A stretch of 21,717 nucleotides of DNA from an uncultured Myxococcales bacterium (GCA_937868485.1 CALMML010000123.1:1-21717); one strand, 5' to 3'. Positions 10,312-13,884 are shown, counted from the stretch's first letter. Notes: a model not told the origin generated them from the sequence alone. Numbers and translations: made by a program.

Positions 10312-11979
10312 TCAGCCGCCACCGGCGCAGCGGAAGTTGACGACCTTGCCTGGAGGTGGCTGGCTGCCACCCTTGCGCCACACACCCGCGACGACGGTGT
10401 CGCTGCAGATGTTGGGGTCTTTGCTCTTCACAGCGCAGTAGCAGTCACGCGCTTCGGCGGCGCAAGCCATCTTGATCGACTCGTCGCCTGGGGTCGGGGT
10501 GCTCGTCGCGGCCCACGCGTTGCAGCAGTTCTTCGAGCAGACCGGGAACGCCGTCTCAGGATCGGGCGAGCTGGCTGGCGACGCTTCATCGACATCGCCG
10601 ACGAGGCAGATCGGGTTGCCGGCTGCATCATTCTTCGGCGTCACCGGCAAGCACTGCGCCTGGAGACGCTGCTCGATCGCCTTGGCGATGCGGTCAAGTG
10701 CCGTCGGGTAGTTGTCGATGTCGCAGATCGAGACTTCCAGCGCGTTGGCTTGACCCTTGGCGTCGGTTCCGAACTGCTTGGCGAACTTCGACAGACGGAG
10801 CTGCGCTTGGCCGTAGACGCTCTGGTCGCTGGCGTACACGCACGAGGCACCCGCGCCGCCCGCTCGGTTGAGGTTCGGGGTGGTGGTGCCACCGGCGCGA
10901 GCGATTTCCACCTTGCCGCCCATGTCGATCGAGGGCAGGGTCCAGATGCCGCTGACGAGCAGCTTGTTCGCCGGACGCAGGTTGCTAAAGAAGCGGTAGT
11001 ACTTCTCGACCGGCTCTAGGTAGTTGTTTGCGCGCTCTTTGCAAGCGGTCTTGACGCCGGTGGTGAGCGTCGTCTCGTTGCACTGGATCGAGCGAGCCAA
11101 GCAGCGGAAGTCGACGTTGTAGCACTCGGGAGAGTCAGGCTGCGTCGGATCGCAGTCGCGGTAGCTCGGGTTGTTCTGATCGCGCTTGGCCATCTGCACC
11201 GAGCAGTCGTCTTCGTCGGTGATGAAGATGACCGCGAGCACAGAGTTGGCGCGCAGAAAGCCCGAGTTTTCGCTGCGGTGGCCGTCGAGTGCGCGCTTGG
11301 CGCCTTCCATCTGGCCTTCGATGCCGCAGCCGTCGTCGCCGACGAGCGCCATACACTTGAACGACTTGATCGGACCGGCATCAACCATCTTGCCGGTGAC
11401 CGGGTCTTTTTCCATCGACTGCGGCACGTTGGTGACGCCATCGACCTTCGAGATGAAGCGACGACCGTCCGTCGGAACGAACTTGTCATCGGGGCAGAGC
11501 TGCGCACACGCGTTGCGTGCGTCGGGGGTCACGGTGTTGCGGGTGGTGCACGGAACCGCTTGCAGCACGCCGTCGTCACCTTCGTAGCTGTCGCACTTGC
11601 CGATGTTGCCGCCCCAGGGCACGCCCGGCTGTACGTTGCTGCCGATGTCGCTGGTGGCGATACCGACGTGATAGTTCGCGCCGGTGTCATCGATCTTCTG
11701 GATGAACTTGGGAATGTTCGACGCGAGCGCCTTCTGCTTGGGCGACATCGACGGCGAGTTGTCGATCAAGAACAGGATGTCGACGTCCTTGCGGAGCCGC
11801 GCATCGACGACGCTTTCGCCGAGCTGGCTGACGCACTTGCCGAACTCCTTCATCTTGGTCTTGGAGTCACCTGCCGTCGGCACCGGGCAGGTCGAGCCCA
11901 CCTGCGGAGAAGTGCAGGCAGACAGCAGCAGGGCAGAGCCGAGCCCAGCGAGCGAGAGTGTGAGGTGGTTACGTCGCAT
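10312..11979 (-). CDS. Cys-rich von Willebrand factor A (MIDAS DxSxS) domain lipoprotein, 555 aa, paralog 2. The start has been re-set to the ATG after GGAGG.
   Basis: MRRNHLTLSLAGLGSALLLSAC gives a lipoprotein signal with lipobox LLSA|C. DILFLIDNSPSM is a MIDAS DxSxS motif within an alpha/beta VWA-like core. The mature protein has more than 30 Cys. There is an ATG with a GGAGG SD 7 nt upstream; the ORF-track start was a GTG 21 codons upstream. Confidence 0.7.
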   Translation of the reverse strand: MRRNHLTLSLAGLGSALLLSACTSPQVGSTCPVPTAGDSKTKMKEFGKCVSQLGESVVDARLRKDVDILFLIDNSPSMSPKQKALASNIPKFIQKIDDTGANYHVGIATSDIGSNVQPGVPWGGNIGKCDSYEGDDGVLQAVPCTTRNTVTPDARNACAQLCPDDKFVPTDGRRFISKVDGVTNVPQSMEKDPVTGKMVDAGPIKSFKCMALVGDDGCGIEGQMEGAKRALDGHRSENSGFLRANSVLAVIFITDEDDCSVQMAKRDQNNPSYRDCDPTQPDSPECYNVDFRCLARSIQCNETTLTTGVKTACKERANNYLEPVEKYYRFFSNLRPANKLLVSGIWTLPSIDMGGKVEIARAGGTTTPNLNRAGGAGASCVYASDQSVYGQAQLRLSKFAKQFGTDAKGQANALEVSICDIDNYPTALDRIAKAIEQRLQAQCLPVTPKNDAAGNPICLVGDVDEASPASSPDPETAFPVCSKNCCNAWAATSTPTPGDESIKMACAAEARDCYCAVKSKDPNICSDTVVAGVWRKGGSQPPPGKVVNFRCAGGG

Positions 11980-12210
11980 CAAAGCCTCCGTACGAATTTC
12001 GACAGCATAGGACCGTGTGGGGTCGTAAGCGTACAGCGGCACCGTATCTCAGATGCGAGGCGAGAGCAAGCCACAGTAGCCGCTATGAACCTACTTGCTT
12101 GCTTAGGCCCATAAGGGGTCACGGACCTTACGGTCCAGGACTCACTTTTTCAATTTCACTTGGAGTTGCGGCGAGACGGGCGGGGCTGCGAGCGGGTCGG
12201 ACGGGCTGTG

Positions 12211-13884
12211 TTAGTAGCCGACGCAGCGGAAGTTGACGACCTTGCCTGCAGGCGGGTTTGCGTTGTTCTTGCGCCACACGCCGGTCACGACACCGCCGTT
12301 GACGCCGCCTTCGGGGGTTCCGGCCTTGCAGACGTTCGGGTCTTTGCTCTTGATCGCGCAGTAGCAAGCGTCGGTGGTTTCACCTGCGCAAGCGGCCTGA
12401 ATGCCCTTGTCCGCGAGCGATGGCGTCGAGGTGCTGGCCCACGCATCGCAGCATCCCGTCGAGCACGTCGGGAAGTACTTTTCGGGCACTGCATCCGGTG
12501 TGGCGGAATCGACGTCACCGACCAAGCAGATCGGCTGACCGTTGACGGTCTTGAGCGTGATCGGCAGGCACGGCACGAGCTTCTTTTCGAGCGTCTTGGC
12601 GATGGTATCGAGCGCCGCCGGATAGTTCGCGGTGTCGCACACATTGAGCTGCGGCGCGTTGGAGATGCCGTCGCTGTCTTTGCCAAACAGGTTCGCAAGC
12701 TGCGACATACGGAACTGCGGCTGACCGACGACCGCGCTGTTCGTTGAGTTGACGCAAGCGGCCTCGCGACGCAGGTCCGAGGTGAGCGGTCCCCCACCGA
12801 TGGTGACCTTGCCGCCACTCGATGCGGCGGTGTCGATGTTCGGTAGCGTCCAGATGCCGCTCACCAGCAGCTTGTCCGCCGAGCGAACCTTGAGGAGCGC
12901 GTCGTAATAGGTCTGGACGGGCTCTAGGAAGTTGTCCACGCGCTCTTTGCAGCCGGTCTTGGCGCTTGCCGTCGTCATCGGCTCGTTGCAGGTCAGCGAG
13001 CGCGCCATGCAGCGATAGTCGACCTTGTAGCAGTCGTACGAGTCGGGCTGCGCGGCGTTGCAGTTGCGGTAGCCGGGGTTTAGCTCGGAGCGACGAGCGG
13101 CCTTGACCGAGCAGTCGTCTTCGTCGGTGATGAAGATGACCGCGAGCACCGAGTTGTCGCGGATGAAGCCGGTGTTGGCGGAGTTGCTGATCGCGCGCTT
13201 GACCGCTTCGAGTGGACCTTCGACACCGCAGCCCGCGTCACCAACGAGTGCCATGCACTTGAAGGCGTTGGTGGGTCCGTAGTCAACCATCTGACCCGTC
13301 GCCGAGTCGAGCTTCAGATCCGTCGGAACGTTGGTCTTGCCGTCGATCTTCGAGATGTACTTGGTGCCGTCGGTGGGCTTAAAGCGATTGTCTGGACACA
13401 GGGTCGCGCAAGCGTTGCTCGCCTCGGGAGAGACGGTGTTTCGCTTGTCGCAGGTGATGTCCTGAAGCCGTCCATCGTCGCCGCTGAAGGTGTCGCACGA
13501 TGGCTCGGAGCCCGCGCCCCACGTCGCGCCGTCCGAGACGGTGGTTCCGACATCGGTGGTGACGATGCCGACGTGATAGTTCACTCCGAAGCTGTCAATC
13601 TTCTGGATGAACTTGGGAATGTTTTCGGCCAGCGCCTTCTGCTTGGGCGACATCGACGGTGAGTTGTCGATGACAAACAGGATGTCCACATCCTTCTTCA
13701 ACCGGAAGTCGTTCGAGTTCCCGGCGATGAGGCCAAAGCACTGCTGAACGGCTTTGTTGCGGGTCTCGGCGTCAGCGTTGGTCGGAATCGGACACGGGCT
13801 TCCTACCTGTGGCGCTGTGCACGCGCCGACCGTCAGGCTCAGCAGTGCCCCGGTCAACGTACGCGTGAGAAGTGGACGGCTCAT
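12211..13884 (-). CDS. Cys-rich von Willebrand factor A (MIDAS) domain lipoprotein, 557 aa, paralog 1. It is about 55-60% identical to the downstream paralog.
   Basis: MSRPLLTRTLTGALLSLTVGAC gives the lipobox. DILFVIDNSPSMSPKQKALAENIPKFIQKID is nearly identical to the paralog. The SD GGGAGGA lies 5 nt before the ATG. Nucleotide blocks are more than 85% identical with the paralog (e.g. 13600-13700 versus 11700-11800). Confidence 0.7.
   Translation of the reverse strand: MSRPLLTRTLTGALLSLTVGACTAPQVGSPCPIPTNADAETRNKAVQQCFGLIAGNSNDFRLKKDVDILFVIDNSPSMSPKQKALAENIPKFIQKIDSFGVNYHVGIVTTDVGTTVSDGATWGAGSEPSCDTFSGDDGRLQDITCDKRNTVSPEASNACATLCPDNRFKPTDGTKYISKIDGKTNVPTDLKLDSATGQMVDYGPTNAFKCMALVGDAGCGVEGPLEAVKRAISNSANTGFIRDNSVLAVIFITDEDDCSVKAARRSELNPGYRNCNAAQPDSYDCYKVDYRCMARSLTCNEPMTTASAKTGCKERVDNFLEPVQTYYDALLKVRSADKLLVSGIWTLPNIDTAASSGGKVTIGGGPLTSDLRREAACVNSTNSAVVGQPQFRMSQLANLFGKDSDGISNAPQLNVCDTANYPAALDTIAKTLEKKLVPCLPITLKTVNGQPICLVGDVDSATPDAVPEKYFPTCSTGCCDAWASTSTPSLADKGIQAACAGETTDACYCAIKSKDPNVCKAGTPEGGVNGGVVTGVWRKNNANPPAGKVVNFRCVGY

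Follow-up and report, generated by a model that had tools for sequence, protein, structure and literature searches.

Two paralogous genes lie head-to-tail on the minus strand of a 21,717-nucleotide (nt) stretch of DNA from an uncultured Myxococcales bacterium (GCA_937868485.1 CALMML010000123.1:1-21717, hereafter the window). They encode cysteine-rich lipoproteins of the von Willebrand factor A (VWA) type that bear a MIDAS motif (metal-ion-dependent adhesion site), and the two coding regions share blocks of nearly identical sequence. The question raised by this locus is whether these blocks are tracts of ongoing gene conversion within a diversifying pair of adhesin genes, as a preliminary description had proposed. 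We found that they are invariant motifs of a protein family written in a strongly biased codon set. We conclude with high confidence that the two genes, here called A and B, are ancient paralogous VWA/MIDAS lipoprotein genes without recent conversion.

The tandem gene pair

The two genes and their export signals are as follows.

12211..13884, minus strand: gene A, Cys-rich VWA/MIDAS lipoprotein of 557 amino acids (aa), ATG start, the faster-evolving paralogue
10312..11979, minus strand: gene B, 555-aa paralogue, ATG start, the slower-evolving and more ancestral-like copy (from its translation, orthologue identities and tree)
13819..13884, minus strand: signal peptide and lipobox of A (M1-C22, LTVGA followed by the lipid Cys, Thr at position +2), read from the sequence, with C22 kept in at least 90% of the family
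11914..11979, minus strand: signal peptide and lipobox of B (M1-C22, LLSA followed by the lipid Cys, Thr at position +2), read from the sequence

The Shine-Dalgarno sequence of A is GGGAGGA at 13895-13889, 4 nt before the ATG, and that of B is GGAGG at 11989-11985. A mechanical list of open reading frames (ORFs) starts B at a GTG codon at 12042; the ATG at 11979, 5 nt past GGAGG, was preferred because of this spacing and because a canonical signal peptide is read from that start. The N-termini up to the lipid Cys are MSRPLLTRTLTGALLSLTVGA in A and MRRNHLTLSLAGLGSALLLSA in B, and as read from the sequence both have the positively charged n-region, the hydrophobic core and a lipobox of the type [LVI][ASTVI][GAS]C. 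The earlier description of tandem paralogous lipoproteins, each with its own Shine-Dalgarno sequence and lipobox, was therefore correct, with the lipid anchor at Cys22 in both. The overall identity of about 55-60% given there also agrees with ours, which is 56% at the protein level over the full length (BLASTP); nucleotide identity in a codon-based alignment is 66.5%. The proteins are indeed Cys-rich, although the count of more than 30 cysteines was too high: A and B have 27 each, lipid-anchor Cys included. All 27 are at least 90% conserved and 21 are invariant in a family alignment of 79 sequences, from which the residue-conservation figures in this report are taken. There is no third copy elsewhere within the 21.7-kb window. 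An identical protein is present in metagenome-assembled genomes (MAGs) of Polyangia (Myxococcota), where B is annotated as U0745_15040, 'hypothetical protein'.

Origin of the high-identity tracts

The near-identical nucleotide blocks named in the preliminary description do exist in the pair. The region at about 13695-13600 in A is roughly 90% identical to that at about 11790-11695 in B, the 3′ ends of the two genes have a 27-nt exact match in common, and the longest exact match, 44 nt, lies in the SVLAVIFITDEDDCSV block. With tracts 82-92% identical and exact matches of 44, 29, 27 and 26 nt in a pair of such moderate overall identity, and with a same-codon fraction in the window genome of 0.77 inside the blocks versus 0.57 outside, the pattern resembles that of paralogues where ongoing conversion keeps producing tracts of near identity and the remainder of the gene goes on diversifying.

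This possibility was examined with the A-B pairs of six genomes, the window and loci L001, L003, L004, L084 and L086. Window A has a DNA identity of 0.66 to its own B and of 0.63-0.66 to B of the other genomes. In 25-codon windows over the MIDAS block, identity was 0.84-0.89 within a genome and on average 0.81-0.84 between genomes, and the cross-genome maximum equalled the within-genome value, indicating that the tracts are as identical between A and B of different genomes as they are between neighbours. The exact matches behave in the same way: the 44-nt match recurs between window A and L001 B, and a 43-nt match is found between L001 A and window B. When nucleotide identity and same-codon fraction were arranged in 6x6 A-by-B matrices, inside and outside the blocks, and row and column effects were removed, no diagonal excess was observed; the residuals were -0.002 to +0.004, values reached by 10-56% of the 720 permutations. 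Intragenomic A-B identity thus does not exceed intergenomic identity, either in the blocks or elsewhere.

For the tree, the L087 pair was added as a sixth non-window pair, and L085 was collected with A only. According to neighbour-joining, the A orthologues form one clade and the B orthologues another, each in 100 of 100 bootstraps, and monophyly of A plus B was recovered in 0 of 100 replicates. Rather than with A, B groups with a single-copy homologue from another genome (L005), again in 100 of 100 bootstraps. Recent gene conversion was therefore rejected by sliding windows, exact-match runs, same-codon statistics, the 6x6 matrices with permutation and the bootstrapped tree, and we consider ongoing conversion between the paralogues extremely unlikely.

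The tracts are explained by two properties of the genes. They coincide with invariant or nearly invariant columns of the family alignment, and the G+C content at third codon positions (GC3) of the genes is 0.82-0.84, so that the same residues tend to be written with the same codons; at identical residues the same codon was used at a frequency of 0.63, against 0.57 expected from codon usage. The near-identical tracts are invariant family motifs in a strongly biased codon set (GC3 ~0.83), not conversion tracts, and ongoing or recent conversion is not supported. Two observations pull the other way. In every A-B comparison, whether made within one genome or between genomes, same codons are mildly more frequent inside the blocks (~0.67 versus 0.57), and synonymous sites are near saturation between the compared genomes (proportion of synonymous differences, pS, 0.37-0.71). 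Because of this saturation, a very old exchange, confined to short blocks and preceding the split of these genomes, may have occurred. As a lesson of method, high-identity tracts in old paralogues of GC-rich genomes can arise from motif conservation and codon bias, and a cross-genome comparison of the paralogues should precede any appeal to conversion.

Asymmetric evolution under purifying selection

The ratio of nonsynonymous to synonymous change (dN/dS, Nei-Gojobori), determined for orthologue pairs, was 0.08-0.24 for A and 0.06-0.12 for B, so both genes are under purifying selection. Nonsynonymous change in A is about 2-3 times that in B for most genome pairs. Compared with their window copies, A orthologues are 74-89% identical as proteins and the B orthologues of the same genomes 90-93.5%. 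The extra variation of A is spread along the protein, with maxima at about residues 220-256, at 373-448 and in the C-terminal domain. Positive or diversifying selection at the whole-gene level is ruled out by the dN/dS of 0.06-0.24, and the idea of a diversifying pair has to be given up: A merely evolves faster, and the signature is that of an asymmetric old duplicate, not of a diversifying locus.

MIDAS motif, cysteines and fold

Both proteins have the MIDAS-type motif DILF(V/L)IDNSPSM, as had been noted before. The motif and related elements are located as follows.

13654..13668, minus strand: MIDAS DxSxS of A (D73-N-S75-P-S77), which the largest high-identity tract contains; Pfam VWA profile positions 1-44 and the NF052240 profile align here
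11749..11763, minus strand: MIDAS DxSxS of B (D73-N-S75-P-S77)
13114..13128, minus strand: T253-D254-E-D-D257 motif of A, candidate third MIDAS loop, at the end of a VWA beta strand and within the 44-nt exact-match tract
12214..12579, minus strand: small C-terminal beta domain of A with 10 Cys, predicted to be disulfide-rich (residues 436-557)

Among the 79 homologues, M78, D254 and D257 do not vary, and conservation reaches 90% or more at D73, S75, S77, T109, D111, T253, E255 and D256. By sequence, the residues of a DxSxS...T...D metal site (D73, S75, S77, T109, D254) are present in A and B, the T and D being assigned by position only. From its place in the modelled fold, the T253-D257 motif is a candidate part of the MIDAS; the 'TD' at the end of this beta strand is what we take to be the equivalent of the third MIDAS loop of integrin beta3.

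The assignment to the VWA fold finds a point against it in the profile scores, for Pfam PF00092 (VWA) gave 15.4 bits for A and 11.9 bits for B, under the gathering score of 23.8, and no VWA call was made by this model in the window proteins or in their 120 closest relatives. The match is limited to profile positions 1-44 and is broken by the inserts in A and B. The AlphaFold2 model of A, built on the 79 homologues, has a mean predicted local distance difference test score (pLDDT) of 87.4 and a predicted template-modelling score (pTM) of 0.85. It shows an alpha/beta Rossmann-like VWA fold, and its secondary-structure order is compatible with a VWA domain inserted in a second domain. In a Foldseek search of the PDB, 47 of the top 50 matches were integrin beta headpieces and the remaining three were the pilus adhesins PitA and SpaC. 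The integrin beta alignments span ~520 columns at ~10% sequence identity, with template-modelling (TM) scores of just 0.29 (query) and 0.41 (target). Further structural matches include the VWA domain of collagen VI and integrin alpha-I domains, and the pilus-tip adhesins PitA, SpaC, RrgA and Mfa5 are listed too. The C-terminal domain of A alone gave no significant match to a PDB structure, and when the PDB was searched with a profile of alignment A1, no entry came out as a relative by sequence with E of 0.1 or less.

A large family in Polyangia

A profile search of 1.84 billion cluster representatives (50% identity) returned 12,673 matches at E<=1e-3, 6,033 at 1e-10 and 755 at 1e-30. The genome matches are nearly all Polyangia (Nannocystis, Enhygromyxa, Paraliomyxa, Haliangium and Kofleriaceae MAGs). 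There are several family loci per genome, and about 17 of 80 loci have two or three copies close together. Distant members, 26-41% identical to A and B, are likewise often clustered in two or three copies in other Polyangia genomes, again with several loci to a genome (L015, L025, L026, L030, L040, L041, L043, L044, L046, L047, L055, L057, L062, L064, L067 and L080). Variant members have N-terminal extensions, one of them made of tandemly repeated segments, and some are without the C-terminal domain. Distant members again match NF052240, and one of them matches the VWA region (645-852) of NF033765, gliding_CglD, with E 4e-6. Distant single-copy members have unrelated neighbours, for example DUF4331 and, once, DsbA.

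In the B orthologue of L002, the coding region is split into ORFs of 96 aa and 374 aa (11869-13541). The B orthologue of a near-identical contig from another sample is intact (L003, 11869-13536), and the split comes either from a frameshift or an error in assembly, or from pseudogenisation of this allele.

Conserved leaders

Two conserved regions lie upstream of the genes.

13995..14053, minus strand: AT-rich conserved element upstream of A, nearly invariant in 8 genomes, sequence TTTTTTGTGCTTTGCATTGCAAATCNCGCAAGTATNCTAAAGATCGGTTAAAAACAAAC
11980..12130, minus strand: conserved leader of ~150 nt between A and B, upstream of B; a 7-genome alignment shows long invariant runs

Hardly any change is seen in this ~60-nt element, in genomes whose synonymous sites are near saturation. 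The element includes a palindrome, TTTGCA-T-TGCAAA (TTTGCATTGCAAA), at 14031-14043, and a 22-mer of it occurs once in each of the 8 loci with an A orthologue (8/8) and in none of the 82 other loci. Invariant runs in the B leader include ACTGTGGCTTGCTCTC, GGTACGGTGCCGC and CGAAATTCGTACGGAGGCTT.

Neither leader had a match in Rfam, the one match found being a chance-level small nucleolar RNA match inside gene B, and RNAalifold on the A leader gave 0 compensatory pairs. A structured RNA in the A leader is therefore not supported, and the lack of an Rfam match and of compensatory base pairs favours a regulatory site at the DNA level. A scan for sigma-70 promoters gave no matches, and terminator-like sites occurred at chance level. 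The A-upstream element is probably a promoter plus a transcription-factor operator. The conservation pattern suggests that both leaders are DNA-level promoter/operator regions plus 5′ untranslated regions (UTRs) and that the genes are separately controlled; as each has its own conserved 5′ leader, A and B are probably regulated separately.

Proposed function and alternative explanations

As a whole, we consider it fairly probable that A and B are ancient paralogues of a large uncharacterised family of ~550-aa lipoproteins, that they serve as MIDAS-dependent adhesins or receptors of the envelope, and that they evolve independently. An adhesin role, taken by itself, is slightly favoured. We infer for A and B an outer-membrane or surface placement, disulfide bonds, metal binding and adhesion. 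A Sec/lipoprotein signal would direct the export of each protein, with Cys22 taking the lipid. The outer membrane would be the most likely destination, since Thr at +2 fits default sorting to it and the signal reported to retain lipoproteins in the inner membrane of Myxococcus xanthus is Lys at +2. The mature protein would be an integrin-beta-I-like VWA domain with a DxSxS...T...D MIDAS, enlarged by Cys-rich loop insertions, and the VWA core appears to be inserted in a small domain formed by the N-terminal segment and the C-terminal ~120 residues. The 26 non-lipid Cys would form ~13 disulfides, and their conservation points to an oxidising, extracytoplasmic location. The MIDAS would hold a divalent cation whose open coordination position is filled by an acidic group of the ligand; integrin I-domains and pilus-tip VWA adhesins are described as working by such MIDAS metal-dependent binding. 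The substratum, polymers of a matrix, prey cells or partner proteins could carry this ligand, and A and B would then be metal-dependent adhesins or ligand receptors of the cell envelope, two copies kept side by side, evolving independently and probably separately regulated.

Several observations weigh against this explanation. The family is uncharacterised, and its cultured homologues, among them WP_143140753 of Nannocystis exedens and WP_146662381 of Enhygromyxa salina, are named just 'vWA domain-containing protein'. No operon partner gene is conserved family-wide, since the neighbours differ among distant members, and no adhesion-machinery genes (Glt, pili) were found among the Pfam-scanned neighbours in the window. 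Surface versus periplasmic orientation is not readable from sequence. The lack of adhesion machinery nearby also speaks for the main rival, in which A and B face the periplasm and their VWA/MIDAS module serves protein-protein assembly or the handling of metals within the envelope, a role shared by many bacterial VWA proteins; most outer-membrane lipoproteins indeed face the periplasm (PMC9946355). Such a role is a serious but rather doubtful alternative. Extracellular adhesion domains, namely those of integrin beta I, collagen VI and pilus tip adhesins, head the structural matches, the sole characterised sequence relatives, Bd0875 and CglD, are surface adhesins, and no MoxR/AAA+ or Bat-type partner adjoins A or B. 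Multi-copy tandem families with one fast-evolving copy would also be typical of surface proteins.

Other readings tie the two genes to each other or to the gene that follows them. Just downstream of B lies a gene for a major-vault-protein (MVP)-like protein, and A, B and this gene could form one functional module, in which, for instance, two receptors in the envelope are linked to a vault-like or SPFH-like assembly in the cytoplasm. A, B and the MVP-like gene follow one another in this order, on one strand, in the window and in L001, L003, L086 and L087, and bacterial MVP homologues occur in gliding taxa including Myxococcales (2019 preprint, bioRxiv 10.1101/872010). However, the MVP-like gene does not adjoin A-B in L004 and L084, A of L085 stands alone with other neighbours, and distant family members are never found with an MVP gene nearby. 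The MVP-like protein is without a signal peptide and so would belong to a different compartment, and the gaps of 171 nt and 231 nt, together with the separate conserved leaders, point to separate transcription units. We regard such a module as very unlikely. Quite unlikely, too, is that A and B are kept as an obligate cooperating pair, either an integrin-like heterodimer or a slow 'anchor' B with a faster 'ligand-specificity' A, switched independently by the A operator and the B leader; if true, this would be a bacterial two-subunit beta-integrin-like system, distinct from CglB/CglD.

Neighbouring genes

The MVP-like gene (7207-10140, minus strand) encodes ~970 aa with matches to Pfam MVP_shoulder (E 1e-18), Vault_3 and Vault_4 and with a long C-terminal coiled coil; its likely start is the M at codon 9. 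Its synteny with A-B is limited to close relatives. Farther downstream are genes for a 630-aa adenylate/guanylate cyclase (5155-7047, minus strand) and a 742-aa beta-propeller protein of the BNR/sortilin-Vps10 type (2875-5103, minus strand). The same cyclase and beta-propeller genes are found in L087, with an EF-hand protein between the MVP gene and the cyclase.

Directly upstream of A, four relatives have a divergent gene of 683-735 aa (L087 3447-5525, L003 7346-9553, L084 962-3034 and L086 2336-4438). Its product is a beta-barrel of the TonB-dependent-receptor type in three of the four, and in L086 Pfam gives no match. In the window just ~700 nt (13885-14582) separate A from a DUF1003 gene, and the divergent beta-barrel-type gene appears to be lost.

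The region 17021-21551 (plus strand) holds lipid-modification genes, namely a fatty-acid desaturase (17021-18178), a fatty-acyl reductase-like NAD_binding_4 protein (19268-20404) and a sulfotransferase (20484-21551). Its G+C content is 0.53-0.60 versus 0.60-0.68 for positions 1-14000, and this run of genes may form a cluster devoted to a lipid that is sulfated or unusual.

Comparison with known systems

The NCBIfam model NF052240, 'MIDAS family adhesin' (the Bd0875 family), was matched partially but significantly, by A with 53.4 bits (E 2e-14) and by B with 43.9 bits (E 2e-11). These scores are far below the 700-bit equivalog cut-off, and A and B are not orthologues of Bd0875. Like A and B, Bd0875 of Bdellovibrio bacteriovorus is a lipobox lipoprotein with a VWA domain and a DxSxS MIDAS; disulfide staples are predicted for it, as they would be expected in A and B, and its VWA core lies between N- and C-terminal segments which build a second, small domain, as that of A and B appears to do (PMC11003981). 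The significant local match to A and B covers the MIDAS strand and helix plus a second stretch. Bd0875 is found in a predatory lineage, and its D66A and E213A mutants lose function (PMC11003981). With 378 aa and four predicted disulfides it differs from A and B, which have ~555 aa, 26 non-lipid Cys and large loop insertions, and its role in prey invasion is not transferable to them.

The likeness to lipoproteins of myxobacterial adhesion and gliding that had been pointed out for this locus is, for the adhesins CglB and CglD, legitimate as an analogy (PMC9946355; bioRxiv 10.1101/2023.10.19.562135). In CglD of M. xanthus, a surface lipoprotein rich in Cys, the C-terminal half consists of a beta-I-like VWA domain with a MIDAS (D656/S658/S660, T693) (bioRxiv 10.1101/2023.10.19.562135). 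The spacing from DxSxS to Thr is 37 residues in CglD and 36-37 in A and B (D73 to T109/T110), and integrin beta subunits are the top structural matches for CglD as well as for A and B. However, CglD has 1130 aa, with an N-terminal COMP/thrombospondin-like Ca-binding half and epidermal growth factor (EGF)-like repeats, whereas A and B, of 555-557 aa, are without these; Pfam detected no thrombospondin or EGF repeats in them, and NF033765, gliding_CglD (400-bit cut-off), gave no match at E up to 1 for either protein. No Glt-like genes, which would link A and B to the Agl-Glt gliding machinery, are among their Pfam-scanned neighbours in the window. CglB of M. xanthus is also an outer-membrane lipoprotein, with a VWA/MIDAS domain, a small beta domain and 17 Cys predicted in disulfides (PMC9946355). 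By its description it differs from A and B in being alpha-I-like, with fewer Cys and without the large inserts, and no CglB-named family was returned in the NCBIfam scan of A and B.

The integrin beta headpiece resembles A and B in its DxSxSM motif and may also do so in the position of the VWA domain between the N- and C-terminal segments of a second domain. The acidic pair of the site adjacent to MIDAS (ADMIDAS), which follows DxSxSM in integrin beta, is absent from A and B, where SPKQ is found. Integrin beta also has an alpha-subunit partner, a PSI/EGF stalk and a transmembrane segment, and A and B are without these. The resemblance may reflect common VWA ancestry with convergent insertions.

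By sequence comparison, the A/B family is a distant relative of Bd0875 and of the CglD VWA module and a member of neither family. The pair would nevertheless work in the manner of the MIDAS lipoprotein adhesins known from predatory lineages of the deltaproteobacterial type. Metal-dependent binding through the MIDAS is described for Bd0875 (PMC11003981) and for CglB and CglD (PMC9946355; bioRxiv 10.1101/2023.10.19.562135), and among predatory and gliding bacteria the VWA/MIDAS lipoproteins are beginning to stand out as integrin-like adhesins, with CglB and CglD in Myxococcus and Bd0875 in Bdellovibrio. A and B belong to a far larger and essentially uncharacterised set of relatives, mostly in Polyangia, a class with few genetic models. 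With the supposed conversion tracts accounted for in another way, the locus leads to an adhesin-like family that is well defined though unstudied, in which the fold, the invariant MIDAS and Cys framework, the tandem multi-copy layout and the cultured homologues (Nannocystis, Enhygromyxa, Paraliomyxa) provide concrete targets for studies of adhesion, gliding and predation alongside the Myxococcus and Bdellovibrio systems.

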